Positions 2,612-29,018 of a stretch of DNA of 35,472 nucleotides are shown here, in pieces. Origin of the DNA: Marinilabiliaceae bacterium (GTDB taxonomy: Bacteria > Bacteroidota > Bacteroidia > Bacteroidales > Marinilabiliaceae); contig JAOZOF010000005.1 of assembly GCA_029933425.1 (NCBI GenBank), positions 1 to 35,472 on the forward strand, written 5' to 3'. Within the stretch, counting starts at the first letter, position 1, and each line of letters starts with the position of its first letter. The notes under the pieces are model-generated. The model searched no databases, was not told where the DNA came from, and saw nothing but the letters and a program-made list of their open reading frames with translations. The position numbers and the translations under genes are program-made.

Positions 2612-2640
2612 CCCGAAGATCACTTCGGGTTTCTTATTTT
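2612..2640. terminator. Intrinsic terminator hairpin between convergent transcription units
   Basis: The stem is cccgaag (2612-2618) paired with cttcggg (2623-2629), with a 4-nt loop atca. On the + strand it is followed by tttcttatttt (2630-2640). On the - strand the same hairpin lies immediately after the stop codon of the 213-aa gene but has only a weak U-tract (auuccuguug). Confidence 0.55.
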
Positions 2641-3280
2641 ACACCCCTTGAATTGAGCTAACAGCCTCAGCAATTTTTATGGCATCACCTTCTGGTGAAT
2701 CGCCTGAGATCTCCATTTCAACCAGAATCCCGGCCTCCGATCTTTTTAGTGCATTTTCATAGATACGGTCGTAATAGGTAAGTAAAAGCGAAACCGCTGT
2801 TTCATAATCCTGTTCCATTATTGAGCGTCGGATACGGCGATATTTTTTTGGATTTAATTTATGTCTGATCTTTGATGCCGCATTCAATAATTTATCTACA
2901 GGATGTTCGGAATAAGTTCTGATAATTCGTTTGATACGTTTTTCTGCAGATACAATAAGAACTATCATTTTCCCTCTACTCATCTCATTCATCAACCAGC
3001 CGGGTATCTGCAGCCGGCCAAGATAGTTTGATTCATATTCGACCCATACAGGTCTGTCAGGGTGAAATGAATCAAGTCTTTCCTTTATTGCTTGTTCAAA
3101 AACCTCCTGTGAAAGCTGTTGTTTACCACCCAGTCCGCCAAACACCGATCCGTTATGTTTTGCAAGAAACTCCAGATCGAGCACCTGCTCTCCCTTGTTT
3201 TGCAGACACCTTAATATTTCCGATTTACCGGAGCCTGTTTTTCCAAAGATCAGTAGAAATTGCAGTTGCCCTGATTTCAT
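2639..3280 (-). CDS. Stand-alone P-loop protein homologous to the C-terminal domain of tRNA 2-selenouridine synthase (SelU/MnmH/YbbB); no rhodanese domain
   Basis: Walker A GKTGSGKS is encoded at 3221-3244. Four strings match my recollection of the C-terminal half of E. coli SelU. VLDLEFLAKHNGSVFGG corresponds to VDLEGLARHRGSAFG. QQLSQEVFEQ corresponds to QPQLSQASFEN. WVEYESNYLG corresponds to VLEDESRMIG. LLLTYYDRIYE corresponds to LLEEYYDPMY. The protein is 213 aa versus about 360 aa for full-length SelU. Its start overlaps the stop of the upstream gene by 4 nt (ATGA at 3277-3280). Confidence 0.8.
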   Translation of the reverse strand: MKSGQLQFLLIFGKTGSGKSEILRCLQNKGEQVLDLEFLAKHNGSVFGGLGGKQQLSQEVFEQAIKERLDSFHPDRPVWVEYESNYLGRLQIPGWLMNEMSRGKMIVLIVSAEKRIKRIIRTYSEHPVDKLLNAASKIRHKLNPKKYRRIRRSIMEQDYETAVSLLLTYYDRIYENALKRSEAGILVEMEISGDSPEGDAIKIAEAVSSIQGV

Positions 3281-5127
3281 TTCTTTTTGATCTCAGAAGT
3301 AGTATCAAACCTTAAACCGCTTGATCCCTGTCCGCGTCCGGTACGTTTTCTGCGGCCAAACCACGTAAATATACTTCCGTTATACCATCTTGCTCTTTGA
3401 AAAGTAGCCATGACCTGAACACCTGCCTTTGGCACTTCTTCCTCAAAAATATCGTATGGCGATTGTTGAGTGTCATCATCGTTCAAACCATATCTCAGAA
3501 TGTCTGTTCTTGGCCGGATCTGCCCCGGTGACAAAGGATACAACTGTTTAAATGTTCGAGGCATTGAAGCCCGCCGCAATTTTATGGCCCGGTTATCGTT
3601 CCCGATATGAACAGGAACAAACGGGATCCAGTTTTCCGGAATAGTACTTGCCAGTTGATATTTTAAAACACCATCCAGATGTTCATCATCTTCATCCTCT
3701 ACAGAATAAAGTTTCTTCAGGAACTCTGTGAGTTCATAAGATGTCTGATGACCATCCATACTTTCACCAAGCATATCCGGAATACGGTCCTCGACTGCCC
3801 AAACCATATTGGCCATTTCATCACGAATGAATTTAACCATCTCTACAGGATCACTTTCATGCACTTTTGTCAGTACCGGAGGGAAGAATATCCTGTTATC
3901 AATTTCCTGTTGTGTTCCCGACGCACCTGCTATGGTTGTAAGGCTGAACATGTTCCAACGGCTCCAGTCATTCCGGACACCTTTACCTGCAGCCTCAACC
4001 AAAGTTTTCTGTCCAAAACTGTCAGTTACAACAATACCTTTGATCTCCGACAAAGAACCTACAGGAACATCATATGGCACAATAAACCAGTTATTACCGT
4101 AAACAAGAGCAAATTCGGTAATAAGGATCTTTGCCAGGTTCTTCTCATCAGCTGAGATATTACCCAGATCGATCGCAGCATCTTCAAGTTCCCACCATCG
4201 TTTATTGGGCATACCACCAAACTGTGCAGCCGCCGGAATTACGGTCAGGGTCCTTCGTGAACGATAAGACTCTTCCTCCTCCGGAACTATATCTCCAAGA
4301 CCGTCAGGAGGAATATTTTTATCGATATCGAAAGAATACCAATCAAGACTACCGGAATAATACTCATTTGCCCTGAGCACAGTGTTTTCACCATCTTCAG
4401 GCAGGCTGCAGGCAAACTGATATTCAAGCTGGCTTGGATTCCATGACTTGTTATCTTCACCATCAGGATAATAGTATAATTTCTCAAACCATCTGATATA
4501 CTTATCAATAGCGGCAACAGCATTTTGATGATCACTACCGGTCAGATCATCAAAGAACCTGGTCATCACATCCAACCTGTTCTCCATCAGATCGTGATAA
4601 AAAACAGTACCATCCATCGCCCGTTCGTTAGCCGCATCCACAAACTGCATTGCTTTATGATTACTTAAAAGCCTGGCTTTAGCCACAACCTCGTTAGCAG
4701 GATCATCCTCTTCTATCTCCGGCATAACAACAGGATAAGCATCGATAAAATCATGTTTAAGATCACCCGGAAGACCTGCTGCCCCCATTATTCTGAACCA
4801 TTGACTGCCTGTTTTCACCTTTGTTTTGTAATCGAAACGAATAGTATCGGCTTCCACTTTTGTTTCAAGAGGAACATTATCGGCATAAGGTACCGCAGGA
4901 TCATCACCTGTTTGAAACTTCGATATCGTAGTTGTTTCCAGTGCAACCTTCACCAAAGTAGCCGAGCCGGTATCTTCACCCTGAAATTCTCCGAACTGCC
5001 ATTGCCGGCCAAGCATCCAGAGAGGGTCATATATTTCGGCCCTCAGCACATTGTCAAAGTCTTTTTTGCGAGGTCTGACCTCCATCCTGTTCCAGGAGCG
5101 TAACGGTTCACATTGCGAATTAGCCAT
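3277..5127 (-). CDS. Giant-operon protein D (616 aa), unknown function
   Basis: Uninterrupted 616-codon ORF starting 11 nt after the stop of the 2296-aa gene. No signal peptide. Distinctive strings are DPLWMLGRQWQFGEFQGEDTGS (encoded about 4969-5030) and NKRWWELEDAAIDLG...FALVYGNNWFIVPYDVPVGS. The C-terminal tail is basic (GRRKRTGRGQG). Confidence 0.88.
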   Translation of the reverse strand: MANSQCEPLRSWNRMEVRPRKKDFDNVLRAEIYDPLWMLGRQWQFGEFQGEDTGSATLVKVALETTTISKFQTGDDPAVPYADNVPLETKVEADTIRFDYKTKVKTGSQWFRIMGAAGLPGDLKHDFIDAYPVVMPEIEEDDPANEVVAKARLLSNHKAMQFVDAANERAMDGTVFYHDLMENRLDVMTRFFDDLTGSDHQNAVAAIDKYIRWFEKLYYYPDGEDNKSWNPSQLEYQFACSLPEDGENTVLRANEYYSGSLDWYSFDIDKNIPPDGLGDIVPEEEESYRSRRTLTVIPAAAQFGGMPNKRWWELEDAAIDLGNISADEKNLAKILITEFALVYGNNWFIVPYDVPVGSLSEIKGIVVTDSFGQKTLVEAAGKGVRNDWSRWNMFSLTTIAGASGTQQEIDNRIFFPPVLTKVHESDPVEMVKFIRDEMANMVWAVEDRIPDMLGESMDGHQTSYELTEFLKKLYSVEDEDDEHLDGVLKYQLASTIPENWIPFVPVHIGNDNRAIKLRRASMPRTFKQLYPLSPGQIRPRTDILRYGLNDDDTQQSPYDIFEEEVPKAGVQVMATFQRARWYNGSIFTWFGRRKRTGRGQGSSGLRFDTTSEIKKK

Positions 5128-5138
5128 TGTGTTATTTT

Positions 5139-8100
5139 TTAATCGTTATTTTCTGTATTATTTTCTGCAAGATCGAACATACCAAGTTTCGCCAATTCGT
5201 CACGATATTCGTTAACAACGGGATATTCGCCAAGAACAGCAGGAAGAACCTGCGTAAATATTGACTTATCGATATGTTCAGGCTCAACCAACCTGGCTTT
5301 ATACAAGTCCATAGTATCAAGGATCGTATACGCAAGATCGTCCCATTTCCACCAGCCTGTTTCTTCCGGCGGTACGGCAAGCAGCATACTTTGCGGCGGT
5401 TCGGCATCGGGCTGATCGTAATTGAAAGTAACGCCGGTAGTCTCTTCCTTTTGAGGAATGACCTCGATCCACTCATCAATGAGTAATCCGCATGTTCTAC
5501 TGCCTGAAGAACCGGCAATCAACTGATCTTTATTCAAAACAACCAATGAAAGTTTATCACTTTCCGGCTCATATTCCTGTGGATATTCCAGACCCAACCA
5601 ATAATCTGCAACTTCTCCGCCATCAACTGTCTTAACAGTCTCGTAAGGCAGTTGAACAGGAGTATATTCAGGAAAATGATTATCAAACAGCCGGGTCATC
5701 GTACTTACCATCTCTACCTTATTTACCCTTTCCCTCACCTTGGCAATGCTTTCAGCCCATGCATCCATAGCGAACTCATCAGCATTTCTCAGTAATCCCT
5801 GTTCCCTGCCAAGCCCGAGTATCTCTGCTAATTCTTCTCTATTACGCAGTGTAAAATGCGGCACTACAACAAAATCTTTCCCGAATAATTCCCCGGCAGC
5901 ATCTTTCAGACTGTTAACTTTTGTCATGTCTTCCAAACGGTCATCATACCCGATAAAGGCATCTGCTTTATTTGCTTTCACTATCATCTCCTTAAGTACA
6001 CCGACAGCCTGCACAGCAAGCGTTTTTCCATTGCCGCTGCCGGGATCATCAGGAACAGTGCCCTGTATGCCGAAATAAAAAGCTTCAAGAAGTTTATCAT
6101 TCAATGTATTGATCTCATCTTCGGTATAAACAGCTTCTTTAACTTCATTTACATCGTTCACATTTATTCCTTTACCATCAAATACTGATTGAATATCATC
6201 TCTGATACCGGAAAATTTCGAATAAGCTATGTTCGTTCGTAACATTAACTCATCGATATCCAATTGCTGCAAATTCAGATCATCGGGTACATTACTACCC
6301 GGAATAACATAGTCTTCAGCAGTTGTATGCCTCGATCTTGTTATTGTTTCATACAAACCGTTAAACAAAGGCATTACTTCATTAAATGTTTTAATATCCG
6401 GAGTAAGTGTTTCTGAGTTTTCAACCAAATGCTCATTTCTGTCTTTAAAATGAATATTTAATGTTATATCAACAGGAACAGACTGTGAGCTACGCACCTG
6501 ATACGCAATCAATTTATTAAGAGAATCGTCATTATCCTTTTCTGTAGAATTAAGGACATAAAGAGCATCGATCGGCTGAAGGCCAAGATCAGATAATCGA
6601 ACAATGTATGAATGCTCTGCATCATCCTGCATATAGGTAACATAACACCTTATCAATGAAGGATCGCCAATAATATTACCTAACCATTTGTTCAAAGAGG
6701 GTTCAGCAAAAGCCCTTGGGGTCAGAGCCACATTTCCCCAGTGCTGAGATATTGCTGCCGAAGGATCGGACTCAAGAAGTGATGATGACACTGTTTCCAG
6801 CTGAAGTACCATCCGCTGCGTAAGCACATGACCTGTTCTCGGAGTATTTACTATCTGAACTTCCTGCGGCACACGTCCTTCGGATAAAGCTGCAAAGACC
6901 GCAGCCGACCGTACATGATTACCCTGTACAATATGGTATACACTTTCCGAAAGCAACAGGTCACCCATAGCATCAAAAGCATTGGCCATTTCATCTATCT
7001 CTTTCAATATGGCCTCAAACTGTATATTGGTTATATTAGTATTTGGAAAAAGATCAGACTTAAGCTGTGACATGTTCGATCTCTCCAGTTCATAAAACGA
7101 ATCGGCTGATCTTAGTGCCTCTTCCCCCAGTAACTCACGAACTGACTCTAAAAGCTCCAGCCCGTTAACCACATGCATCAGATTCTTCTCTTCATTCTGA
7201 TTAATTGCTGTTCCACTGTCAACATCAGGAACAAGCGGGAATTTCCTCCTCAGATCATAAATGTATTTATCCAGCTCAATTCCCTGAGCAAGATAATTCT
7301 CATGCAATCCGCGTTCGAACTGATAGCCGAGCAGTGCACCTGTTTCCTGACCATTGCGAATGCCCCCTATCAATTTCAGCGCCATCCTGACCCTTTTAGA
7401 GGTCAGATTTACCGCCATGGCATTGTTCATGTCACCGGCTCCGCGGTTTGCCATGTAACCACCGCGTAATATGGCGGCAGTCATAGCATGATTGATAGAA
7501 GGAGTATGAATAAATCCTTCATTATCCTCATCGGTATAAACGATCTTGTTGTCATTTTCTTTAAGCCTATCGGGCAGGTCAACGGCAGGTTTTCTTTCAC
7601 CCCCGGGTTTCAGGTCTTCAAGCAAACCGAATGCCCCAAGGTAAATACCTTTAGGTGCCGTTCCTTTTCTCATCTTATCGAGACGTTTATTGGCAAGACC
7701 CAGTTGCCAGGCATCAAAACGATAAGTACACAGATCCAGGTGTTCGGCAAAAAGTCTTTCAAGAACACTAACAGGTAATTCATTAAGTTCAAGAAATTGG
7801 TTTTTAAGCTGTGTGACCTTAACAACATTAAGATCGTCTTCACGTAACTGGTATAAATAGTCACCCATTGACCAGTTATGAGATTTGATATGTTTCCACA
7901 ATTTATTATGTTCCCAAACTCCCTCACCTGCAAGCGGGAAATGCTCAAAGACCCTGATCCCGTCACTCATCATATTTTCCAGATCAGATAACCGTCTGAA
8001 CAGATAATCCCATTTTGTAAAGATTACATCATTACCATCAGGCCCGGGAATAAGATATGTTCCTTTTGAACCTGCCCTTCTTCGGGTATTTTCATTGATT

Positions 8101-11100
8101 ATCCTCTCTTCCATCAAAATATCGAGAGCAACATCCCTGTATGCAAGAGCCAGAGACTGACGAAGAAACATAAAGAAAAGTGAATTGCTTTTCAGATCGT
8201 CGTAAGCATCATCATTCCAAAGATGGTCAAGAGGAACAGAAAGCAATTTATTAATATAAGTATTCCCATTAACAGAAGGAAGGAAATCATCATCATTTTC
8301 ACGCACAAAAGGTCCTAACAACTGTCCAAACTCATTATGATACCTCAAACGGAATATCCTTGCCTCTCCTATCCGTTCAATGTGTTTCATGTCGAAATAA
8401 GTATCATCAATAAAATACCCTTCATCAAGAAGTTGTCCGAAGAGCGTTTTCATGTTTGCAGGACCGTACATGGAATCCTTTGAAAAATTAACCGTAAAAT
8501 CTTCTCCTATCGACGGTTTTATGCTCCGGCGCTGTGCCACATTGGTATTGTAACGATAATACTGTTCGATAGAAGTAGCCTGTAATCCCAGTAACTGTAT
8601 AAAATGTTCCTGAGCAGATTTTTGTTCCGGGTCAAAATCATCGATCTTCAACTTTTCTCTTTTTACAATGTCTGTCCATTGCCTTCTTAAGACTGACAGA
8701 AGATGATTTAACCTGATATCGAAACGCTGTTGCAGGATGTTATCAGAATATGACGAAGAATAGTATTTTATATCATCTTTATCAAGTGGTGGCAACTGTT
8801 CATTTCTATATGCCTTAAATCTTGAGAATGCGGTCGTTGGCAAAATACCATAAGGCTGGTTACCGATACGCAAAGCCGGAAGCCATCCCCGTCCCGTAAC
8901 ATATTTTGTAAAATATTCACGTGTTCTTCTGTTGTTATCGAGGTTAAATACAGTATCCAACACCTCTTCAAGATAGTACCCCATGGTACTGTTCCACATG
9001 CTTTTATTCATCAACAAAGCGTTGTAGATATCCCTGCCGTCTGCATTTTTCAGTCTGTTGAAAACGGAATCATCAACACCAAGTGCCTCCATTATGCGAT
9101 AGCCATCTATGTTTTGCCTGCCGGCAGAGTATTCCGTAAAAACAGGAGATCCGGTAATTCGCCTGTAAGTATCATCAATCTCATCCTGTGAGCTAAAACC
9201 TGAGACTTTCTTTTCTGTGTTATTCGTGGCTGTGCCTATGGATAGAAGATCAATACCTTCAGGTAAATATGCATGAGATCTTAACAGTTTTTCCAGCATG
9301 ATCTTGGCCTCTTCTGCTCCCGTATGTTTTACTCCGATAACAATGATCTTATCAAACCCGTTTTCTCTCTCATCAGGTCTCAGTGGTACAGTAATTCCCA
9401 TACCTTTTTTTACTGCCTCATCAAAATCGGTGAGCCATTTTGTATTCTCATCCATTTTCAGATTGCCTTTGTCATCATATTCAAAAAGGCCTTCTGTATT
9501 TGATGAAGGATCGATACCGACAATAAGAGGATCGGGAATGGCATTACCTACTTTTGTATGAGTAAATTCACCGTCTTTCATGCCGAGAAAAACAAATCGA
9601 TCAGGCATAACCTCTGAACGCGGAGCTCCGGACCAGGATTCTTCTTTTAACCTGTAATCATCAGGAAATTCAGGAAATACGGTAGATTCTAACAATGTAA
9701 TATCCTTAACTGCTTTCACTTCCTCCAGTTTACCGACAAGAGTAACTGCAGCATTAACAGCATCATCAAAATTGCTGATATCCTGAGACGTAAGTTGAAG
9801 GCCTGATAATTTATTGAAAGTCTGTTTCAGAGCATTTAATTTTTGCCCCACCTGATCCAGCAATCCGGCAACAGTGTTAAGCATACCGGCAGTTTCCTTC
9901 TGAAAATGGTCAGCCAGTATCACACATGCATTCAGCTCAAAATGCAGGTTATTCAGATTTACCGGTAAAAAGCTGAAGTTGCTTCTGTTCTGAGCATTTA
10001 TTTCATCAATGATACTATTTACTTCTTTAAGTTTGTTTTTGATCTCAATTAAAGGTCTCGACGGTTTACGGTGTCCCCGCCCTGTTCTTTCGGGAGTTAA
10101 AAGATCACGCAAATAAACGGCTCTGTTCTCACCGTACTTCAATGCAAGCGGGCGCCATGCTGCCAATTCTGTCTCCTCGTCATTGGCGGCATTCCATACC
10201 TCTGTCCAGAAATACCGGGTATCATCAAGCTCCTCACGGGTAATGGCTTCTTCATGAGAATTGATAAAAATATCATCAGGATAGATCCTTACCCAAAGCT
10301 CATCAACTGTTTCGGAAGGCATTTCAAAGATGAACTTCTTCCTGAAATCGTCATAAAAAGCATCATATTCATCAGTGATATCACTTTCCAATGTTCCTGC
10401 TATATCGTTTATCGCTTTCTTTGCCTGCTTCATCTCCTCAATTAACGAAGCCAGCCTGCGATTACTTTTAGCCTTTTTTTCTATTCTTGTAAAAAACGTA
10501 TTAAGACCATTAAGCCTGTAATGCAGGTCTTTAAAGAATCTTTCAGGAATAATTGTTGTTTTGGTTACCAAAGCAGCAAACTCATCCTTAAAATCCTGCA
10601 CTCTGCTTACTGCAATTCCCAAAGCCCTTTTATGCACAGTATCAGCATAAGCAAGTGTTCTGATATGTTCGGTAAGTTCATCTAATTTTCTTATTGCAAT
10701 GTTATAGGCATTAGCACTTTCAATAAAATTGGAATTTTTGATAAAAGCTCTGTTTTCCGGTGCTTCAAGTTTCAACCCTTCAAGGTCAGCCCTGTAATTT
10801 TCGTTGATATGGGATATACTGCGGGTTATCCCTGCTTTTTCATAGCGATTAGTTGGTTTAAGCCGCGATACCTGCCATGTATACTCTTCGAGCAGAACAT
10901 CAACCTCGCTCCATGTTGACCTTAACTGATGGATAATTTCGGGAGAACCGGTGATGATATCATGCCCTGCCTCCCTGAATTTTCGTAAGAGATGATAAAG
11001 ATGAACACGTGTTTCCTTTAATTCACCATAATTTTTAAACCCTTTTTTGTTTATCAGTTCCAGCTCAAATTTGATCATTTTGGCCTGGTAAACCAATTCT

Positions 11101-12029
11101 GTTCCGTTTACTCTTTTTAACTCATAAACATAGTTCAGTTTAGGAACTATCACCTCTTCTATCATTGTTGAAATATTACGCATTCCCGGAAGAATAAAAG
11201 AGTGATATCTTGTCAGAAACTCATTTCTTTTATAATCGGAACGAATACGTGAGAGTTTTTTTCTGACTTTGGTCAGAGCCCTGTGATACACTACCGGCAT
11301 TTCACTTATCCGGCTGATCTGATTTGGATTGGCAATTACATTTTTCATTGCCTTCTCTTCCACATCAACAAGAGTCTTGTCTATCTTCTCAAACTGTTTA
11401 TCAATGTAGTTGAAATAGTGATGTTTTGTCTTTGAAGTATACTTAACCGGTTTATCCGATATTCGCTGTAACACATCTTCAATGTAATTCAATTTACCTA
11501 CCAGTTGCTTTCCTTCGTCATATTCAGTCTCTTTTGCTTTTGCGATCCGGTAATTCTCAATTTTCAAAACAGCATTTTCCAAAGCCCGTCTGACATTTGC
11601 TAAATGTTGTTGTAACTCATGCGACAGACCTTCAAATTTTACAATCAGGCGGTCATAGCTTTCCCTGATATCCGCCACGTTCTCTTCCCACCGGGTATTC
11701 TCAGGATATGGCAGAGGCATAGGATCAACCATCCTTCTGTCAAGATCGCTGATCACTTTTTCTAATTGTCTACGCAGGTCTCTTGCTTCAGGGAGATCAT
11801 CAAGCTCAACATGTTCGAGTTTAAGGAACAGATATTTCAGCTCCACCAGAAGATGTAACACATCCGGATCGAAATTCAGTGACACAGGCCTGTCAACCTT
11901 CATGAACCTTGTTTCAAGCCTTACCGGCATCAAAAGAAAAGGGAACTGGTCGCTATGTCTCCCTGTAGCCTGTCGCACCTGCTGAATGTTAGGATCATTA
12001 AATTTGGTACTGATAATATCCTGACTCAT
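5139..12029 (-). CDS. Giant-operon protein C (2296 aa), unknown function; long N-terminal helical/coiled-coil-like region
   Basis: Uninterrupted 2296-codon ORF. No signal peptide, TM cluster, or T9SS CTD. The N-terminal motif FPFLLMPVRLETRF is encoded at about 11904-11945. Roughly the first 800 aa are rich in E/K/L/R heptad-like sequence. A later motif, GRGWLPALRIGNQPYGILPTTAF, is encoded at about 8830-8900. Confidence 0.9.
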   Translation of the reverse strand: MSQDIISTKFNDPNIQQVRQATGRHSDQFPFLLMPVRLETRFMKVDRPVSLNFDPDVLHLLVELKYLFLKLEHVELDDLPEARDLRRQLEKVISDLDRRMVDPMPLPYPENTRWEENVADIRESYDRLIVKFEGLSHELQQHLANVRRALENAVLKIENYRIAKAKETEYDEGKQLVGKLNYIEDVLQRISDKPVKYTSKTKHHYFNYIDKQFEKIDKTLVDVEEKAMKNVIANPNQISRISEMPVVYHRALTKVRKKLSRIRSDYKRNEFLTRYHSFILPGMRNISTMIEEVIVPKLNYVYELKRVNGTELVYQAKMIKFELELINKKGFKNYGELKETRVHLYHLLRKFREAGHDIITGSPEIIHQLRSTWSEVDVLLEEYTWQVSRLKPTNRYEKAGITRSISHINENYRADLEGLKLEAPENRAFIKNSNFIESANAYNIAIRKLDELTEHIRTLAYADTVHKRALGIAVSRVQDFKDEFAALVTKTTIIPERFFKDLHYRLNGLNTFFTRIEKKAKSNRRLASLIEEMKQAKKAINDIAGTLESDITDEYDAFYDDFRKKFIFEMPSETVDELWVRIYPDDIFINSHEEAITREELDDTRYFWTEVWNAANDEETELAAWRPLALKYGENRAVYLRDLLTPERTGRGHRKPSRPLIEIKNKLKEVNSIIDEINAQNRSNFSFLPVNLNNLHFELNACVILADHFQKETAGMLNTVAGLLDQVGQKLNALKQTFNKLSGLQLTSQDISNFDDAVNAAVTLVGKLEEVKAVKDITLLESTVFPEFPDDYRLKEESWSGAPRSEVMPDRFVFLGMKDGEFTHTKVGNAIPDPLIVGIDPSSNTEGLFEYDDKGNLKMDENTKWLTDFDEAVKKGMGITVPLRPDERENGFDKIIVIGVKHTGAEEAKIMLEKLLRSHAYLPEGIDLLSIGTATNNTEKKVSGFSSQDEIDDTYRRITGSPVFTEYSAGRQNIDGYRIMEALGVDDSVFNRLKNADGRDIYNALLMNKSMWNSTMGYYLEEVLDTVFNLDNNRRTREYFTKYVTGRGWLPALRIGNQPYGILPTTAFSRFKAYRNEQLPPLDKDDIKYYSSSYSDNILQQRFDIRLNHLLSVLRRQWTDIVKREKLKIDDFDPEQKSAQEHFIQLLGLQATSIEQYYRYNTNVAQRRSIKPSIGEDFTVNFSKDSMYGPANMKTLFGQLLDEGYFIDDTYFDMKHIERIGEARIFRLRYHNEFGQLLGPFVRENDDDFLPSVNGNTYINKLLSVPLDHLWNDDAYDDLKSNSLFFMFLRQSLALAYRDVALDILMEERIINENTRRRAGSKGTYLIPGPDGNDVIFTKWDYLFRRLSDLENMMSDGIRVFEHFPLAGEGVWEHNKLWKHIKSHNWSMGDYLYQLREDDLNVVKVTQLKNQFLELNELPVSVLERLFAEHLDLCTYRFDAWQLGLANKRLDKMRKGTAPKGIYLGAFGLLEDLKPGGERKPAVDLPDRLKENDNKIVYTDEDNEGFIHTPSINHAMTAAILRGGYMANRGAGDMNNAMAVNLTSKRVRMALKLIGGIRNGQETGALLGYQFERGLHENYLAQGIELDKYIYDLRRKFPLVPDVDSGTAINQNEEKNLMHVVNGLELLESVRELLGEEALRSADSFYELERSNMSQLKSDLFPNTNITNIQFEAILKEIDEMANAFDAMGDLLLSESVYHIVQGNHVRSAAVFAALSEGRVPQEVQIVNTPRTGHVLTQRMVLQLETVSSSLLESDPSAAISQHWGNVALTPRAFAEPSLNKWLGNIIGDPSLIRCYVTYMQDDAEHSYIVRLSDLGLQPIDALYVLNSTEKDNDDSLNKLIAYQVRSSQSVPVDITLNIHFKDRNEHLVENSETLTPDIKTFNEVMPLFNGLYETITRSRHTTAEDYVIPGSNVPDDLNLQQLDIDELMLRTNIAYSKFSGIRDDIQSVFDGKGINVNDVNEVKEAVYTEDEINTLNDKLLEAFYFGIQGTVPDDPGSGNGKTLAVQAVGVLKEMIVKANKADAFIGYDDRLEDMTKVNSLKDAAGELFGKDFVVVPHFTLRNREELAEILGLGREQGLLRNADEFAMDAWAESIAKVRERVNKVEMVSTMTRLFDNHFPEYTPVQLPYETVKTVDGGEVADYWLGLEYPQEYEPESDKLSLVVLNKDQLIAGSSGSRTCGLLIDEWIEVIPQKEETTGVTFNYDQPDAEPPQSMLLAVPPEETGWWKWDDLAYTILDTMDLYKARLVEPEHIDKSIFTQVLPAVLGEYPVVNEYRDELAKLGMFDLAENNTENND

Positions 12030-12075: not shown

Positions 12076-14976
12076 TCAGGGAAGCATTTCTGATGCATGC
12101 CGGGCATAAATAACAGGGTTCTGATACAGTATAAAAGCCATTTCAGCCGAATTGGTTCCCCACGACGGGTTTGAAGCTGTTGCTCTGATATAACTGCAAC
12201 TGATGCAGTACAACTCATCGAGGCTTCCGTCAGCGGGAACAAGGTGCCCCCATTCCAGGTCATTCCATACTGTTGCATTTCCCGCAGGTATGGTTTCCGA
12301 ATCATCCAGCCCGAAATTTATCTGTCCCGGACGCTCTTTCAACACAAAGAACCACCCCTCGGGATAATCATTGTTCCCCTGTGCCTCTTCTTTAGTCAGA
12401 TTAAAGCCGAAGATGGCAATATCCGGCTCAAGCTCAGCCTGAAATATAGGCGTTCTGATATTATCAGGATTGTTCATGTCAGACAATCCTCTGGGTTGTC
12501 CGGCTCCGCTGGACACAGCCTGCTGAGCAAAGATCACTGTGTTAGGATATTTTCGCAGCAAATCGCCACGGATAACGAGAACCACAAAGTTCTTTTTCTT
12601 CTCCGGTGTTCCCTGTTCATTGATTATCCTTTCATTGTGTTCGCCAAGATGATCATTCCATTGATCCATAGGAAGAATGTCATGATCGTCCCTAACGCTC
12701 AGACTATCCTTGTCGTCCCAGAAGTTCCTGAAATAGGAACCTCTCTGGTCAGTCGGGTACTCACGCCACAAAAGTTCTTTCGACATTTCATGGTTCAGCC
12801 CTGTCATAATAGATTCTATGAACACCTGATTGTTTTCAAGAAGTGTTATCGTATTTTCCGGTATTTCTCTGATGTTGGGAATGATATAATCCTGAGATAC
12901 TTTTTGCAGATAAAGAAACATGGGTTCCTGAATTTCAGGATAAGCCATTATTGGTTTTATTTTCGCCAATTTATTCTTTCCCACAAGTATTCTCGGGGAT
13001 AACATATTCGGTATTGTAACTAACGGATCGATCTGCTTTGACAACGATTGTGAGAATCCTTCCAGATCATGAAGTGATGGAGGAACAGGCTTAACAGGAA
13101 GCGTTGCAAGCTCTGATGCAAACGTCTGAAAATTATGCAAAAACAGTTCTTGCGAAGAAATAGCTTCAGGAGGAAGCTGTAAATTCTCATTTTCCTGTGC
13201 TTGCTGTGTATTCTGCAAATCAAGAAAATAATTTATAGCACTTTCAACCTCTGAAGTAGATACTACCATAGCAGGTTCAGTTTTCTTTTTAGCTGCTGTA
13301 AGAGCCCTCTCTTCTGTGCCTATATCTTCAAGGTTAAAATTAGTTATCAGCTCTTTCAGTATCGGGGTTCCGGTTGCATCCGCCTCTTCTTTGTTAAGAT
13401 TTTTAATTGCTTTCTTTCCCGGACGCACGATCTTTTTAAAAGCAGCACTCCTGACAGCATTAGGGATCTTGCTGCGTGTCAGATTCTCCTCAAAAGTTTC
13501 ATTGCTTTCAGGATGCAGAATGAACTTTTGTGCAGCAGAGGTCGTCATTAAAAGTTTATCTTTATCCATACGGGTAAAATGTTTCTCATAAATGGCATTA
13601 TTGATCATTTTAGCCATTTCGGCTTCCCGTATTTTCTGATTAGCCTCATTGATCTCACCCACCTGTTTCCAGGCCATCTCCATAAATTTCTCCTGATACT
13701 TTCTGACAATACCGGTTCCCACTGAGGCTGCTGCCCTGTTTTTAGGATCAAGATTAAGCTCATCAATCCATACTTTTACATTTCCGCCGGCTTTTCGCAT
13801 AAGAGCCTGCCACTTACCATAAATAGGCGGACTTACAACAGGATCATCAACTACTTTCTCAGAATAAAACACATCAGGATCGTTAGGATCATAAAACGGA
13901 TTTACAACATTGCTGCTGTCCTGGGTTGTTTCACTGATATCAGCTGAAACATTTAAAATGAGCTTCAGCTTGTCTCTGAACTGAGTATCGCCTGCTCCGC
14001 CCGGCCATACCGTCGGGGTGAACGAAGGAGGTTTAAGAGCTCCTTCCAGGCCCAGAACAGTGGTGTTTGCCATGTCATCCAGCCCCATCCCGGGTTTCTG
14101 GATATTCATATCACGTTTCCCGAAATTCGGTCCCAAAGGTTTAGCTGTAAGTATTCGCACAAGTGATTCGAAATCGCCGTTCCTTCCGGTTTTAAACTCC
14201 CAGTGGTAATAAACAGGATAATCATTAGGCCTTACGGATGAATCAGCCGTGCTACCGGTGGTCCATGAAGATTTTTGTGCCGGCACATCTTTGGGGTCTT
14301 CACCCAAACCCGCCAGTCGTCCTGTTTCAAAGGCAGGGATCAGAAAAGCATGGTATTTCACACCATCTTCTGCCCGCTCCAAATGCCGCGGACTTATCAA
14401 TCGGGAATATGCAATATCAGGGTTGGCTTTCAGTTCCTGCGTAAGCATACTCTGCACCCCGGTCCGGTTCAGAGAATGATTTACGTGTACATGCGCCCAT
14501 GCCCAGGTCTCTGTATTATCGGGAAACACCTTTGCGGCAGCATTATTTTTAATGCTTACAAAAGGTAACCCGTCACCCATATCCCTGAACTCATACTCTT
14601 CTTCTTTGGCCACTATCAGAAAAAGCCACGGACGCAATCTTTTTTCACTTTCAACCCTTATGGCAGGAGTATATCTCCATGGGAAATCCTCCTCGTAAAA
14701 TTCAATGTATGCCAACGCATTACTTTCAAAGTCTTCTGTACCCTCCTGAGGATGGACACGCAAAACAGCATCTTTGTTTATGCCTGTTACATCTCCGGGC
14801 CCCTGCAGTTTGATGTTTTTTGTTATCAGGGTATTGTTAAGATCGAACTGAACCGTGAGTTCCGCCCTCTCTTTAGTTGCAGTAACAGAAACTCCAAGTG
14901 TATCCTGCTCTGTTATCTTATTGGCTATCCCCAGCTTCAACCAGGGAAGAAATGAATATTTAGATAGTGAGGCCAT
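12076..14976 (-). CDS. Giant-operon protein B (966 aa), unknown function
   Basis: Uninterrupted 966-codon ORF starting 27 nt after the stop of the 1495-aa gene. No signal peptide. Distinctive strings are YSFLPWLKLGIA, LQGPGDVTGI, EEDFPWRYTPA, RPWLFLIV and C-terminal VLKERPGQINFGLDD. A short helical stretch is KFMEMAWKQVGEINEANQKIREAEMAKM. Confidence 0.9.
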   Translation of the reverse strand: MASLSKYSFLPWLKLGIANKITEQDTLGVSVTATKERAELTVQFDLNNTLITKNIKLQGPGDVTGINKDAVLRVHPQEGTEDFESNALAYIEFYEEDFPWRYTPAIRVESEKRLRPWLFLIVAKEEEYEFRDMGDGLPFVSIKNNAAAKVFPDNTETWAWAHVHVNHSLNRTGVQSMLTQELKANPDIAYSRLISPRHLERAEDGVKYHAFLIPAFETGRLAGLGEDPKDVPAQKSSWTTGSTADSSVRPNDYPVYYHWEFKTGRNGDFESLVRILTAKPLGPNFGKRDMNIQKPGMGLDDMANTTVLGLEGALKPPSFTPTVWPGGAGDTQFRDKLKLILNVSADISETTQDSSNVVNPFYDPNDPDVFYSEKVVDDPVVSPPIYGKWQALMRKAGGNVKVWIDELNLDPKNRAAASVGTGIVRKYQEKFMEMAWKQVGEINEANQKIREAEMAKMINNAIYEKHFTRMDKDKLLMTTSAAQKFILHPESNETFEENLTRSKIPNAVRSAAFKKIVRPGKKAIKNLNKEEADATGTPILKELITNFNLEDIGTEERALTAAKKKTEPAMVVSTSEVESAINYFLDLQNTQQAQENENLQLPPEAISSQELFLHNFQTFASELATLPVKPVPPSLHDLEGFSQSLSKQIDPLVTIPNMLSPRILVGKNKLAKIKPIMAYPEIQEPMFLYLQKVSQDYIIPNIREIPENTITLLENNQVFIESIMTGLNHEMSKELLWREYPTDQRGSYFRNFWDDKDSLSVRDDHDILPMDQWNDHLGEHNERIINEQGTPEKKKNFVVLVIRGDLLRKYPNTVIFAQQAVSSGAGQPRGLSDMNNPDNIRTPIFQAELEPDIAIFGFNLTKEEAQGNNDYPEGWFFVLKERPGQINFGLDDSETIPAGNATVWNDLEWGHLVPADGSLDELYCISCSYIRATASNPSWGTNSAEMAFILYQNPVIYARHASEMLP

Positions 14977-15003: not shown

Positions 15004-18000
15004 TTAATCCTGTAAAACTGCTTTATAGTCAGGAATGATGATCAATTCATCTTTCAGTGACGGATCAGCAGTTGCAGCGTTCAAAAATGCCTCATTGGCT
15101 TCAGCTCTTGAACCTTGTTGGAAAGTAACCGAATCAAAAACCTTCAGATCGCTCTTTCTCGCAATAACAAAATGTTCTGTTCCAAGAGTGACTTTCTTTG
15201 GATTATTAAATGTCCGCACTCTGTTTTTCCCTGAGAGAACCGAATTACTTACAGCTCCTCCTTTTGCAAAATGAGTAAAAAGCTCTGCAGGAATTGTTAA
15301 CAGATCAGACTGATGAATTCCGTAGCTTGTCAGACCTCTGTCCGGATTGTCATTCATGCGTTCAGTATCCGAAATAATAACCTCATATTCCACATTTTTG
15401 TTAATGCCCCACTGCGTTTCGGGCTCATCTGTTCCTGTGGTTTTAAACCCGCCTTTAAGCTTTTCAAATGAAGGAGCTGATAATTTATCGTCATCACTCA
15501 TCTCTTTGTAAGCTGCAGGAACAAAGTCTTCCCTCGCCGTCCCGGTATCGAGAGGTGTTGTACCACTTGAGTTATAAAGTCTGATATCAGATATCTCAAA
15601 CAACTTATCACCTGTCGGATTATTATTCCCGAACCGTTCAATGGAGATCCCGAGAGGAACTATCTTCTGACTTACGGTAAGTGTACCGAAGGCAGCCATC
15701 AGAACTTCTCCTTCAGCAAGGTCGATATCTTTACGCAGTGTTATCAGGTCGAAATGATCAACGGGAAGTTCACTTTTCCAGTTATTGCTGTCGTTAAGAG
15801 CTTTGATAACAAGCGGCAAAACATTGACATCGGGAAGAGTGATCTTTTTCTCCTCACCGATAGTCTTACTAAATTTGGCAGTATACTTAATGAACAATAT
15901 TCTGAAAGAAGCCTTGCCGGAAGCAACCCACGGATTAGGCCCTGTAAGAGTAAAGCTGAGTGAAATAGAGAACAGGGTCGATCCACCGCATTTTACAGCC
16001 AGCCCGGCACTTACCTGTGCAATAAAACGAAAAGGATCGAAAATAAACAACACATCAAATCCAAATCCTCCTACAATTTTGAACATTGCCACCTTCAAGT
16101 AAAAGTCAATGGCAGCGCCAAACTGAACGGAGTTAGTTGTAAGGGCAAAATAGCTGGTAAGTGTCAGCCTCGGATTTCCGCTAAGGAAATTGATGGTCAG
16201 CCGTTTCATCTCAAAGAAATGCAGATGCGGTGCAGGTTTATAAGCCGGGTGAAATCCTCCCACTGCGACGGCAAAATCAGGACTGGCACCCCACGACAAA
16301 CGCAAAGCCATCTGACCTTCGAGAGTAAAGGTGACAATGCGTGAATCGAATAATCCTGCATCAAACGATATCATTCCTTTATTAAAGTCTATAACACCTA
16401 TGAATGCCACATTGATCTTTATCAATGCATGTTCTTTGGTAGGGATAGCAGTTCTTATCACACCGAGAATAAATATCCTTACAGGATCGTCAAATTCGAT
16501 CATCACTCCCAGTTCAATGGTAAGCAATGGCGGTGTATTCCAGGTTATCATGGCCATCGGGCCAATCAGGAACTGATCGCGCTTAGGCGGGAATATTGCA
16601 CGCAAATCACTTATGATCTGACTGATGTTGCTGATCACATTTTTGGGGAAAAGAATATTTGAGATAGATCCCGTATTGACACCTGAGCCTAATTTATCGG
16701 CATTAACAGTACGATGTAATCCGATCAAACCACCCACTCCTGAAAGGTAGAAATTATAACTCAGAGGTATCGGCGCCGGAAACTCCGTTGTTATGATTAT
16801 CAAAAGTGATGTCCCTTTACTTCCGTCAGGCAGAACTGTTGTAAGCAGGCCAATGGCAGTAAACGAGAACATATCCTGAATTGACAGCTCAAGGGCTCCG
16901 GCATACCGGTTGTTATCACTGTCGAAGAAAAGATATCCGCCTCCTGTAAAGATATCTGACTCAAGACTTATACCTATACCTTTAGGATAGATGACGCGCA
17001 AACTGACATCCACCGGACCCAGATTTCCCCCGCTGTCTTTTAATTCTATCTTAGCACCAAGTCCCATGCCTTCGATGGTACAGGTAACAGGGCCCAGCGA
17101 GAATTTCGTTCCTAACAGCAAAGCATCTATTTCTGTCGGATCTCCTGTTTTCAGATCGATCTGAATAGCCCTTATGGACATAACATCGCCAAAGCTCATA
17201 TCGACAGGCACAGTGGCACTTCCTCCCTGCCCTATATTTTTTATATTGAAACCATTCGGCCATGAAAGATCAATATCAATATCGATATTATCTGTTTCCG
17301 ACAGATCAAACTTTTTGATGTCAATATCTTTTGGCACAAATTTCTCAATACCCGGAATAACAATATGATTAACGATCTTACCTCCGAATCCGAAACTCCA
17401 TTTACTGCCATGTTTACCTATCGACAACATCGACAGCTGAACATTTATCAGATCTTCGATATCAACAACATTTATGTAATCCGTACCTTCCGGAATCTTT
17501 GCTGTTATAGCAAAACCATTTTCTTCAAAAGTGATATCTATATTCAGTTCAATATCAAAAGCATCAATTTTAATGGTTCCTGATATTTCGGTGTCAGATT
17601 CAATAATGCCGTCTTTGTTAAAACCGATAGTAAGTTTGGTGAGCTTGATCTCCAGCCCGCCGAGATAAAGTGATGGAACAGGGGAACCTGAAACACTGAT
17701 CTTGTAATTATCGTTGTCCTTCGTCAGATTTATTCCGATGGCCTGAGGACTTCCGCTGCCGTTATCAACCATTGGAAAGCACAAAGTGCCGTCTGCAGAG
17801 AACTCCTTAATGCCTGAAGTATTCAAGCTGAACAAAATAGTTCCGAGGTCTAGTTTTATTCCGGCTAAATCAAAAGCAGGAATATTATCAAAAGTAAATG
17901 AATATGTATCATCTGATATTGTCACAGCTATGTCCACTTGCGCATCTTCATCTGTTCCCGCTTTTTTCAATCCCTCAATGATCAGTTTTCCGTTGATGTT

Positions 18001-19491
18001 TGTAGTATCAAGTGAATTCTTATTGAATTGCAGATCAAAATTCTCGAGCTGTACTTTAAACAGGCCGGGCAGTTCAAAATGCAGCAAATCGCCCGGATGA
18101 GCCGGATCGGTCTCCATAACCAGATGTCCCGTAAAACCACCCGGATCTCCAATGAGCAGGTTCCTGCCTTTGATAACAGCAGTTGTTGATTGCGTATCGT
18201 CTGTCTGCCATATTGCAGGCAATGTTACCGTAGCTTCATCAATAAAAATACCTTTGAAAGTCAGAGGACGTCCATCGCTGTTGGCTTGCGGAATATTGGT
18301 ATCATCATGTATATCCAATACACAAGAATCAAAATCAATAGTAATACCTGTCTCCAAAACAGAAGATCGTTGCAGCTCACATGTTAACACCTCATCAAAA
18401 TCAAAACCGGATTCTGTTGTAAAGCTGAAATTACCCACATGAAAAGTCAATTTTGATGTAGCCGGTTCTTGTAAAAAATGATTCTGATCATCCAAAGGAA
18501 TAAGCATGCTACGGGGAAATTCAAAAGCCAGATCAACATTCGTTACATGTGCTTCAACCTGAGGTACAAACAACTCCTCGAACGATGATGGCATATCAGG
18601 AATATGAATATTCAGAAAATGAAAAAGCTCTTCTTTCAGGGTATTAAAATTACTGCTCACATCAATAACAAGATCTTTTATCAGATCAACAGCGCTATGC
18701 CCGAGGCTACTTAATTTTGTACCAACAGCATTAAAATCCAGATGAAGATCATATTCTATCCTATCAGAACCGGTAAGTCCATATTTTTGATTCAGGCTTT
18801 CAACCAGTTTATAAATTCCTTTTTTTATTACTGCCCCCAGTACCTCTGATGCAGAAGAAGGATCACTGACCACAGAACCGAGATTAAAATCGGAAATAAT
18901 ATCATCTAACGTTTTGCCCGCATTAGCAAGTAAGCTGTCTTTAATTTCATCAAATGTCGGCACACCGGAAAATGAAAGTTCATTCGCCGTCCCTGCCAGG
19001 TTATAAAACCTGTTCAGTTCATCAATAATAGCCTGAACAGGTATTGTTATCGTATCTGCTGCTTCCTCGTAATATGAGATCAGTTTATCAATAACACTCT
19101 CATAATCTATATCATAAATATTTGTCAAAGTCGTCAGGAGGGTATCCAGATCGGAGGGAATACTTTGAATATTAAAATCACTGATAAACTTGATAATATT
19201 CCATACATAATGAACCTGCAGGGGGATCTCTGTTGTTGTTACACTACCGTTCACAGCAGGATTCAACAGCAACTTCACTTCTAAACCCGGAAAAGTAAAA
19301 CTTATTGTTTTGGTAAAAACAAGGGTCAGATTGTGAGTGGCTTCATGACCACTGGCGCTTTTGTTTGTAACAACATGATTCTTATATTGAATATCAGCCA
19401 AAAACCCGGAAGTCAGGTCAGGAATATGCAGTTCTTCAGGCAAAAGATCGATAGAAATAAGGTCAGACAAAGGTAATAACGGGTCAGGCAT
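15004..19491 (-). CDS. Giant-operon protein A (1495 aa), unknown function; the C-terminal half resembles the DUF6603-type conserved module (from memory, unverified)
   Basis: Uninterrupted 1495-codon ORF and first gene of the operon. No signal peptide or CTD. It has three apparent zones. The N-terminal ~400 aa are acidic and helical-looking. A middle region is beta-rich with quasi-periodic sequence. A conserved-looking block runs from GGGYLFFDSDNNRYAGALEL through GVGGLIGLHRT, GPMAMITWNTPPLL and VGGFHPAYKPAP to FALTTNSVQFGAAIDF (encoded about 15850-16950). Confidence 0.9.
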   Translation of the reverse strand: MPDPLLPLSDLISIDLLPEELHIPDLTSGFLADIQYKNHVVTNKSASGHEATHNLTLVFTKTISFTFPGLEVKLLLNPAVNGSVTTTEIPLQVHYVWNIIKFISDFNIQSIPSDLDTLLTTLTNIYDIDYESVIDKLISYYEEAADTITIPVQAIIDELNRFYNLAGTANELSFSGVPTFDEIKDSLLANAGKTLDDIISDFNLGSVVSDPSSASEVLGAVIKKGIYKLVESLNQKYGLTGSDRIEYDLHLDFNAVGTKLSSLGHSAVDLIKDLVIDVSSNFNTLKEELFHFLNIHIPDMPSSFEELFVPQVEAHVTNVDLAFEFPRSMLIPLDDQNHFLQEPATSKLTFHVGNFSFTTESGFDFDEVLTCELQRSSVLETGITIDFDSCVLDIHDDTNIPQANSDGRPLTFKGIFIDEATVTLPAIWQTDDTQSTTAVIKGRNLLIGDPGGFTGHLVMETDPAHPGDLLHFELPGLFKVQLENFDLQFNKNSLDTTNINGKLIIEGLKKAGTDEDAQVDIAVTISDDTYSFTFDNIPAFDLAGIKLDLGTILFSLNTSGIKEFSADGTLCFPMVDNGSGSPQAIGINLTKDNDNYKISVSGSPVPSLYLGGLEIKLTKLTIGFNKDGIIESDTEISGTIKIDAFDIELNIDITFEENGFAITAKIPEGTDYINVVDIEDLINVQLSMLSIGKHGSKWSFGFGGKIVNHIVIPGIEKFVPKDIDIKKFDLSETDNIDIDIDLSWPNGFNIKNIGQGGSATVPVDMSFGDVMSIRAIQIDLKTGDPTEIDALLLGTKFSLGPVTCTIEGMGLGAKIELKDSGGNLGPVDVSLRVIYPKGIGISLESDIFTGGGYLFFDSDNNRYAGALELSIQDMFSFTAIGLLTTVLPDGSKGTSLLIIITTEFPAPIPLSYNFYLSGVGGLIGLHRTVNADKLGSGVNTGSISNILFPKNVISNISQIISDLRAIFPPKRDQFLIGPMAMITWNTPPLLTIELGVMIEFDDPVRIFILGVIRTAIPTKEHALIKINVAFIGVIDFNKGMISFDAGLFDSRIVTFTLEGQMALRLSWGASPDFAVAVGGFHPAYKPAPHLHFFEMKRLTINFLSGNPRLTLTSYFALTTNSVQFGAAIDFYLKVAMFKIVGGFGFDVLFIFDPFRFIAQVSAGLAVKCGGSTLFSISLSFTLTGPNPWVASGKASFRILFIKYTAKFSKTIGEEKKITLPDVNVLPLVIKALNDSNNWKSELPVDHFDLITLRKDIDLAEGEVLMAAFGTLTVSQKIVPLGISIERFGNNNPTGDKLFEISDIRLYNSSGTTPLDTGTAREDFVPAAYKEMSDDDKLSAPSFEKLKGGFKTTGTDEPETQWGINKNVEYEVIISDTERMNDNPDRGLTSYGIHQSDLLTIPAELFTHFAKGGAVSNSVLSGKNRVRTFNNPKKVTLGTEHFVIARKSDLKVFDSVTFQQGSRAEANEAFLNAATADPSLKDELIIIPDYKAVLQD

Positions 19492-20022
19492 AACAAATGC
19501 TTTAACAGTTTACTCAACAAAACTTAAAAAAATAACCAGGCTATAGAGTCTGCCGGAAACCTTCTTTAAAGGCGTATTAGAGGCTGTATTACCAAATAAG
19601 CATACAGAATACCATTAAGTCGCAGTCCGGGATATGCAGTAAAAACATAAAGATCATGCTATTACAACATGATTCACGGATATTCAAATTCTTAATAATT
19701 GAATCAAGTTAATAAAATATAAACTGCAAGACAATATTTTTCATGATTTTAACATTACAAAAAAGATTGCATACGTTTTTATAATCCATCGATTACCGAT
19801 ATATTTCTGAATATCTATAAATTTAAAACCATTAATTCCATAATAATAATGCAATGGAGCAATGTATAATAACCTCTTGAAAATACATAATCACATATAT
19901 TTCAAATGATTCCTAATCAGGAGACCCATCTAAATAACGCTCATGTACTAAACTACAGCCAATCCTTATCTAAATATCTCTATTTTAAGCCTGTAAATTG
20001 TAACAAATCGTAAGCTAATTCG

Positions 20023-20030
20023 TACATTTG
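20023..20030 (+). promoter_or_regulatory. Candidate Bacteroidota -7 promoter box (TAnnTTTG) for the histidine kinase gene
   Basis: TACATTTG at 20023-20030 is an exact match to TAnnTTTG. It ends only 4 nt before the ATG at 20035. Confidence 0.4.
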
Positions 20031-20034
20031 TTTT

Positions 20035-29001: not shown

Positions 29002-29018
29002 AAGGTAAAAGGAGAAAG

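Follow-up and report, generated by a model that had tools for sequence, protein, structure and literature searches.

We report the analysis of a 35,472-nucleotide stretch of DNA from a Marinilabiliaceae bacterium (GenBank assembly GCA_029933425.1, contig JAOZOF010000005.1, positions 1 to 35,472; the whole stretch is referred to here as the window), in which a gene for a 213-residue protein follows the four core genes of a giant operon and encodes only the P-loop half of SelU (MnmH), the synthase of 2-selenouridine in tRNA. Sequence comparison places this protein in a diverged, operon-linked family of SelU-like paralogues and sets it apart, within the available sequence, from the housekeeping mnmH-selD selenouridine synthase. 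The linkage of the family to one clade of these operons is robust and is, as far as our searches show, undescribed. It is probable that a fold from tRNA modification now serves a new function; what appears to be new is a rhodanese-less SelU paralogue dedicated to an operon, and the mechanism that we put forward for it is inferential.

SelU is a two-step enzyme whose domain roles are still debated and which has no solved structure (none was found in the PDB by sequence search). A natural family, kept under selection, whose rhodanese half was disabled or deleted, apparently on more than one occasion, amounts to an evolutionary dissection of SelU, and the invariance of the P-loop half predicts an activity of its own for that half. 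The near-exclusive linkage to a single clade of DUF6603 operons also provides a first biochemical handle on the giant operon, whose four genes encode ~5400 amino acids of protein in which DUF6603 is the only recognisable domain. It offers two leads into the system, an enzyme of prenyl or phosphate transfer and a cysteine specific to the clade.

The 213-residue protein opens with MKSGQLQFLLIFGKTGSGKSEILR and only 12 residues precede its Walker A motif (Table 1). The DNA upstream is the intact gene of a 616-residue protein, read in another frame, whose TGA (3279-3277) shares bases with the SelU-like ATG (3280-3278). The preliminary description of this DNA had listed the motifs GKTGSGKS, VLDLEFLAKHNGSVFG, EYESNYLG and LLTYYDRIYE, all of which are present in the translation, the last three at residues 33-48, 81-88 and 166-175, respectively. 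It had also assigned the protein to the P-loop half of SelU/MnmH and to nothing beyond it, which the limits of the profile alignment bear out: residues 5-190 match positions 138-325 of the 346 in the NCBIfam MnmH model NF008750 (E 3.5e-54). The score of 184.2 bits does not reach the equivalog cut-off of 241 for this model; ten operon-linked relatives that were tested all fall below the same cut-off (139-205 bits), and the match of the 213-residue protein to TIGR03167 (E 2.3e-48, 165.2 bits) lies below the cut-off of 219.75. For close homologues PF26341 (AAA_SelU) is the sole precomputed Pfam domain. Homologues of 211-225 residues form eight clusters, at 52-99% identity to the 213-residue protein, and the next-best homologues after these short clusters are full-length MnmH proteins at ~41% identity. 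Homology to SelU/MnmH extends over the whole C-terminal P-loop domain, with 35-41% identity to Bacteroidota MnmH, and the Walker A motif, the signature HxGSxFG, E81/E83, R115/R118 and the YYD motif are invariant in the alignment with canonical MnmH.

Residues G13, G16, G18, K19, E37, G44, S45, F47, G48, E81, G88, P93, R115, Y123, Y169, Y170 and D171 are conserved in all of the groups compared. Of these, G13, G16, G18 and K19 are at least 90% conserved in the canonical, window-clade and operon-linked groups, and G16, G18 and K19 are invariant in two alignments (A2 and A4), as is H42 in the first of them. Some 29 positions that are at least 90% conserved in canonical MnmH are altered, for example in the PQPTTEQFQN and KKLGGQHF stretches. 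Since the ratio of non-synonymous to synonymous substitution rates (dN/dS) within the window clade is 0.12-0.21 and the SelU signature positions are conserved, we take the 213-residue gene to be functional and under selection. It is extremely improbable that the gene is a functionless, decaying remnant of a housekeeping mnmH beside an inserted island. The stepwise loss of the rhodanese half across the relatives, first of the cysteine and then of the domain, speaks for such a remnant, and the selection analysis largely refutes it; reading frames that are intact in 28 loci, catalytic motifs that stay invariant at ~30% overall identity and the precision of the ATGA overlap also tell against it. 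The abundance of short forms also argues against decay: in a representative library clustered at 50% identity, from which 3678 proteins match the profile overall, ~60 of the best 150 matches are short-form clusters, and a search with a short-form profile recovered at least 57 clusters of 205-242-residue proteins in which PF26341 is the only domain.

The position of the gene is conserved only within one part of the operon family. When operon loci were searched by tblastn with the 213-residue protein, a SelU-like gene was found in 27 of them (24 genome loci and three close metagenome loci), and in most of these it lies no more than ~600 bp past the homologue of the 616-residue gene. In two Chitinophagaceae loci it stands ~3.5 kb off, behind two inserted genes for ~600-residue proteins. 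Inserts of this kind, two or three paralogous genes for proteins of ~500-640 residues between the 616-residue homologue and a convergent SelU-like gene, were seen in L018 (11899-15557), L032 (11861-15190) and L090-L092, those of L090-L092 having PKD domains. Across 28 loci the SelU-like family is the sole gene family common to the downstream side of the operon, and the flanks beyond it are unrelated.

The family of the 616-residue protein is of two N-terminal types, one with an invariant cysteine in the motif CEPFRxWNRLE and one, lacking the cysteine, that reads P(A/T)(I/V)TxWNRLEGRPR. Every SelU-like-positive locus combines the Cys type with a long third protein (~2300 residues). Among loci whose downstream sequence extends for 1 kb or more, the SelU-like gene is present in 24 of the 28 with the Cys type and in none of the 39 others (Fisher test 2e-14, uncorrected for phylogeny). 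By gene order the operon of the window is a typical DUF6603 (PF20248) giant operon, and it is only in the clade with the CEPFR motif and the long third protein that such operons have the SelU-like accessory. The occurrence of the gene in homologous operons elsewhere, to which the preliminary description had tied its interpretation, therefore holds for the Cys-type loci and fails in the remainder of the operon family, which is larger and more distant.

Pairwise identities of the 616-residue and SelU-like proteins co-vary (r 0.86; Mantel test 0/2000), a pattern that fits their inheritance as a single module but to which the species phylogeny that they share contributes. In the reverse direction, three of four short forms that lie on long contigs adjoin a 616-residue homologue. 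Close to the window, the loci L001, L002, L003 and L084 keep the order of a ~2300-residue, a ~616-residue and an overlapping ~211-residue P-loop gene at 54-99% identity, while the genes further downstream differ among them; the start/stop overlap that had been noted at 3277-3280 is thus found in four other assemblies, with 4 bases in L001, L002 and L084 and 8 bases in L003. A conserved fifth gene was also sought in the operons without a SelU-like gene and the idea was rejected, the downstream neighbours there being unrelated (CobA, a xylose-isomerase-like TIM barrel, a 2-oxoglutarate (2OG) oxygenase, a transposase, a TIR-trypsin protein and others). The last of those named is a trypsin-like protease-TIR fusion encoded directly after the 616-residue homologue in an operon of the non-SelU type from Pyrinomonadaceae (L053, 12012-13109, plus strand), and the combination is typical of defence islands.

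The 213-residue protein differs from SelU/MnmH in having neither the N-terminal rhodanese domain nor its catalytic cysteine (C97, in the CxxG loop), so that selenation as carried out by SelU is impossible for it. That no rhodanese is encoded in the window, as first proposed, was upheld by Pfam, tblastn and hhalign. Pfam scans of the larger open reading frames (ORFs) of the window contained no rhodanese domain, and tblastn with ~100 MnmH rhodanese domains returned only spill-over from the Walker A region and one weak, in-frame match in the 616-residue gene. The latter, hit repeatedly at 4783-4920 (E 0.004-0.02), was considered as a hidden rhodanese and dismissed as chance at an hhalign probability of 0.5%. 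Within 10 kb of any short SelU-like form no separate rhodanese gene was found. Spongiimicrobium salis has a sequence similar to a single-domain rhodanese (tblastn E 5e-6; L014, 13633-14519, minus strand), just past a full-length, Cys-containing operon-linked SelU-like gene.

Canonical genes keep different company. Whereas the neighbour of the SelU-like gene is the giant operon, two canonical Bacteroidota mnmH genes (P0039 and P0092) lie directly upstream of selD, which encodes a 339-344-residue AIRS/AIRS_C protein, and no giant operon was found near either pair. A tblastn search with the two linked SelD proteins gave nothing significant in the window or in ~90 giant-operon loci (~1.7 Mb). The analysis thereby argues, within the available sequence, against the ordinary housekeeping pathway that the preliminary description had named as a counter-case. 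A more specific form of that case is that the 213-residue protein supplies the P-loop subunit to a selenouridine synthase of the ordinary, split kind, with rhodanese and selD elsewhere and its place beside the operon incidental. Archaea offer the precedent of a bipartite SelU whose P-loop domain likewise forms a separate polypeptide (Su et al. 2012, as cited in PMC4830565) and both halves are, as far as the account in PMC4830565 goes, required, and the archaeal C-terminal-subunit model TIGR04569 does match the 213-residue protein weakly (E 2e-13). We consider it distinctly improbable all the same: the protein scores 50.7 bits with TIGR04569, whose cut-off is 180; the archaeal rhodanese gene lies immediately downstream, according to that account (PMC4830565), and here none lies within 10 kb of the short forms; selD is beside both canonical mnmH genes and absent from the giant-operon loci; a SelU-like gene adjoins the operon in 24 of 28 loci, and the flanks past it are unrelated; and some relatives keep the rhodanese domain without its catalytic cysteine, which rules out selenation in those proteins.

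The operon-linked relatives occur in three states. Full-length forms with the rhodanese cysteine (C-x-x-G-G-x-R-S) are found in L009, L011, L014, L027 and L028, all co-oriented with the operon. Full-length forms in which this cysteine is replaced are found in L005-L008, L010, L012 and L017, all convergent with it. Rhodanese-less forms of ~205-240 residues, which include the window clade, occur on either strand. Since a rhodanese domain, either with its cysteine or lacking it, persists in operon-linked relatives, the fold was not recruited as a bare P-loop, and the preliminary description needs amending on this point; loss of the domain, probably more than once, is suggested instead. Canonical MnmH was monophyletic in 100 of 100 bootstraps; for the sister group of the window clade, as between canonical MnmH and the other operon-linked forms, the figure was 47 of 100. 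Many of the rhodanese-less or Cys-less proteins (P0241-P0360) are labelled 'tRNA 2-selenouridine synthase' by JGI/UniRef and hypothetical by NCBI. The former is probably an over-annotation, and one through which the selenouridine trait would be overcounted in Bacteroidota.

About half of the related loci have the SelU-like gene on the other strand, in convergent orientation to the 616-residue homologue, so that it must have its own promoter there. The proposal of an accessory subunit recruited to the operon consequently survives in part. The gene is an accessory (24 of 28 loci of the same clade, three of four reverse look-ups), but obligatory translational coupling is not general, and independent transcription in about half of the loci is easier to reconcile with an enzyme or regulator acting in trans than with a stoichiometric subunit that is co-translated. 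An independent promoter, which had been named as evidence to the contrary, is needed by the convergent loci, while the window clade keeps the overlap with the 616-residue gene. Scans for an internal promoter of the SelU-like gene with sigma-70 and Bacteroidetes-type consensus sequences gave matches at chance level. These observations bear on a second alternative, in which the protein, non-catalytic or an NTPase, serves as a switch, a chaperone or an assembly subunit and ATP or GTP at the P-loop controls a complex of the giant proteins. The intact Walker A motif, the predicted kinase/NTPase-like fold and the ATGA overlap of the window clade, which suggests co-production with the 616-residue protein, would suit such a role. 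We nevertheless think it unlikely, given separate transcription in the convergent loci, the full rhodanese domain with cysteine that some members retain, and the conservation in all groups of HxGSxFG and YYD, which lie outside the P-loop and suggest that the acceptor site of SelU has been kept.

An AlphaFold2 (AF2) model of the 213-residue protein, built from 115 sequences, has a mean predicted local distance difference test score (pLDDT) of 91.8 and a predicted template modelling score (pTM) of 0.86. Its best PDB neighbours by Foldseek are adenylate kinase 5, dephospho-CoA kinase, UMP/CMP kinase, NRK1 and Fap7 (E ~1e-5, template modelling score 0.4-0.5). The predicted fold is that of a nucleoside monophosphate (NMP)-kinase-like P-loop protein, in which the donor site is at the P-loop and the acceptor region is distinct from it, and in the model the HxGSxFG loop appears to occupy the position of the acceptor (NMP) site of the kinase-fold relatives. 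The two share this arrangement of donor and acceptor sites, but sequence identity to NMP-kinase-like kinases is 10-17%, no Pfam or NCBIfam cut-off of a kinase family is reached (CoaE 13.9 bits against 27, AAA_18 21.7 against 29.4), and SelU transfers a prenyl group where the kinases transfer phosphate. In SelU the C-terminal half is the proposed site of geranyl pyrophosphate (geranyl-PP) (PMC4830565, PMC12177912): tRNA geranylation requires the Walker A lysine K155, which is taken to mark the geranyl-PP site, rhodanese Cys97 is essential for selenation only (PMC4830565), and geranyl-PP does not bind to the isolated N-terminal domain (PMC12177912). The substrate of the parent enzyme is the wobble 2-thiouridine (s2U34) of tRNA-Lys/Glu/Gln (PMC4830565).

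From these elements we propose, as the most likely explanation, a dedicated, trans-acting enzyme that would keep the pyrophosphate-donor (geranyl-PP) chemistry of SelU without the selenium step, a reading suggested by conserved residues and by analogy with SelU and one that we regard as evenly balanced between right and wrong. The system appears to need the P-loop half of SelU, since the rhodanese domain and the strand vary while Walker A, HxGSxFG, E81, R115 and YYD stay. The protein would act in trans as an enzyme, because the orientation flips and the convergent genes need their own promoter. A (pyro)phosphate-bearing donor, which is geranyl pyrophosphate in SelU, would bind at the P-loop, and the reaction would be the first, selenium-independent half of SelU chemistry, the S-alkylation of a sulfur nucleophile; selenation dependent on the rhodanese cysteine would not be possible. 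The wobble 2-thiouridine of tRNA-Lys/Glu/Gln is the default candidate for the substrate and a component of the giant system the alternative.

Several points weigh against this proposal. No SelU-like gene lies in the 10 kb downstream of four Cys-type operons, the 10-kb surroundings of one short form (L088) contain no giant operon, and the functional link between gene and operon is drawn from gene neighbourhood alone. A 2025 study puts tRNA binding in the rhodanese domain (PMC12177912) and the archaeal split enzyme, as far as PMC4830565 relates, needs both halves for tRNA binding as well as for selenation; with tRNA binding tied to the rhodanese half, a lone P-loop domain may not bind tRNA. Members differ widely in the net charge of the domain (isoelectric points of 5.1-9.6), which is uninformative on RNA binding. 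The use of Lys, Glu and Gln codons is the same in the operon as in neighbouring genes, so that nothing ties the operon to wobble decoding; the notion of codon tuning was dropped when the G-ending fractions for Lys/Glu/Gln, 0.28/0.38/0.70 in the operon and 0.30/0.41/0.74 in its neighbours, showed no difference.

As to the acceptor, two more specific versions of the trans-acting enzyme can be formulated. In the first, the acceptor would have switched to a protein thiol and the enzyme would S-geranylate Cys6 (of CEPFRxWNRLE) in the ~620-residue operon protein, whose invariant N-terminal cysteine is restricted to the operon clade that carries the SelU-like gene. In the window this motif reads C6-EPLRSWNRME, with the Cys6 codon at 5110-5112, and the cysteine is one of two in the whole 616-residue protein. 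We hold this version to be highly improbable; if true, it would describe a protein prenyltransferase of P-loop/kinase fold, unrelated to the known ones, that lipidates a giant soluble assembly. In the second, the protein may be a self-sufficient tRNA geranyltransferase that masks s2U34 tRNAs for, or from, the giant system.

A further alternative is that of an immunity or effector enzyme in a conflict system. The giant operon would attack or sense s2U34 tRNAs, and the SelU-like enzyme would either mask the wobble base in the tRNA-Lys/Glu/Gln of its own cell or modify the tRNAs of a target. The parent SelU acts on these nucleotides, and the same tRNAs are the targets of known anticodon nucleases (PrrC, the zymocin gamma-toxin). 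An independently transcribed neighbour fits the layout of an immunity gene, and the operon is patchy across phyla and occurs on plasmids near insertion sequence (IS) elements and integrases. Set against this are operon proteins with no match to a nuclease, toxin or defence domain, a majority of operons in the family that have no SelU-like gene, and an accessory that is a single conserved family and not a variable cassette. We judge a role of this kind to be decidedly unlikely, and the translation-targeting conflict system of the preliminary description to be speculation.

In the window five minus-strand genes stand in a row, encoding the DUF6603 protein of 1495 residues, proteins of 966, 2296 and 616 residues and the 213-residue SelU-like protein. 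The positions of these genes and of other features of the locus are collected in Table 1.

Table 1. Features of the giant operon and the SelU-like gene in the window
Feature	Position	Strand	Basis or remark
SelU-like gene, 213 amino acids (aa), ATG start	2639..3280	-	SelU/MnmH C-terminal P-loop (AAA_SelU) domain alone
ATGA start/stop overlap of the 616-aa and SelU-like genes	3277..3280	-	Read from the sequence
Walker A GKTGSGKS, residues 13-20	3221..3244	-	K19 is the equivalent of SelU K155
SelU signature H-x-G-S-x-F-G, residues 42-48	3137..3157	-	Conservation in alignments
YYD motif, residues 169-171	2768..2776	-	At least 90% conserved in every SelU-like group
GC-rich 7-bp hairpin	2612..2629	.	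10 bases beyond the SelU-like stop, between the convergent SelU-like and CAAX-protease genes
616-aa protein, last core operon gene, without known domain	3277..5127	-	Library searches
2296-aa giant protein, soluble, without known domain	5139..12029	-	Library searches
966-aa protein without known domain	12076..14976	-	Library searches
DUF6603 protein, 1495 aa, first operon gene	15004..19491	-	Pfam PF20248, E 8.6e-120
AT-rich intergenic region 5' of the DUF6603 gene	19492..20034	-	Presumed promoter region of the operon

The AT-rich region at 19492..20034 has no conspicuous promoter consensus. At the other end of the operon the hairpin at 2612..2629, which has a run of T on the plus strand only, likely forms the end of the operon transcript. 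Neither a tRNA nor a structured RNA of Rfam was found in the window or near the operon.

The giant proteins have no transmembrane segment and no signal peptide and are very poor in cysteine. Pfam recognises only DUF6603 in them, and searches of NCBIfam, PADLOC, PHROGs and PDB sequences gave no significant match to them; no match to a nuclease, toxin or defence domain was obtained among the operon proteins, and PADLOC-DB gave weak, generic P-loop matches to the SelU-like protein only (mad8 and mad3, E 1e-4 to 7e-4). An AF2 model of the 616-residue protein from 16 sequences, with a pLDDT of 50, was too poor for a fold search. The family to which this protein belongs has more than 1890 homologues, every one unnamed, and literature searches for DUF6603, PF20248, PF26341 or the giant operon found no publication.

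A pattern scan of species-representative genomes gave 571 confirmed relatives of the 616-residue protein, from which 80 loci of many phyla were retained. Almost every locus of sufficient length keeps the gene order DUF6603-966-2296-616, which was found in Bacteroidota, Acidobacteriota, Cyanobacteria, Chloroflexota, Pseudomonadota, Bacillota and Actinomycetota. A Rhizobium plasmid has a homologous operon running from the DUF6603 gene to the 616-residue homologue, with all genes annotated as hypothetical, and the 616-residue family is also present on plasmids of Streptomyces, Rhizobium and haloarchaea and on one contig labelled as an 'UNVERIFIED bacteriophage'. The annotations of these plasmid and phage homologues, which are hypothetical, 'lamin tail domain-containing' (haloarchaeal) or absent, give no functional clue. 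The phage-labelled contig (L096; MT835531.1, 'UNVERIFIED: Bacteriophage sp.') is a 40-kb sequence from human faeces with homologues of the 966-, 2296- and 616-residue proteins. Its many long, overlapping ORFs with GTG starts suggest a high G+C content, and it may be bacterial rather than viral.

The organism of the window corresponds to a Bacteroidota metagenome-assembled genome, GCA_029935835.1. Elsewhere the window also encodes genes of the type IX secretion system (T9SS). At 24070-30098 on the plus strand lie the gene of a 1643-residue protein, which has numerous PKD repeats and bears a CHU_C type IX secretion signal, and after it a PorP/SprF gene, the two forming a pair of T9SS cargo and outer-membrane partner. 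The downstream neighbour of the SelU-like gene is a convergent CAAX protease gene, beyond which (376-1365, plus strand) lies the gene of a 329-residue protein with weak, sub-threshold Pfam matches that include an aspartyl-protease domain. In a 99%-identical contig from a metagenome-assembled genome (L084, 12031-12901) the homologue of this protein is broken into two ORFs, which is a strain-level frameshift or an assembly error.

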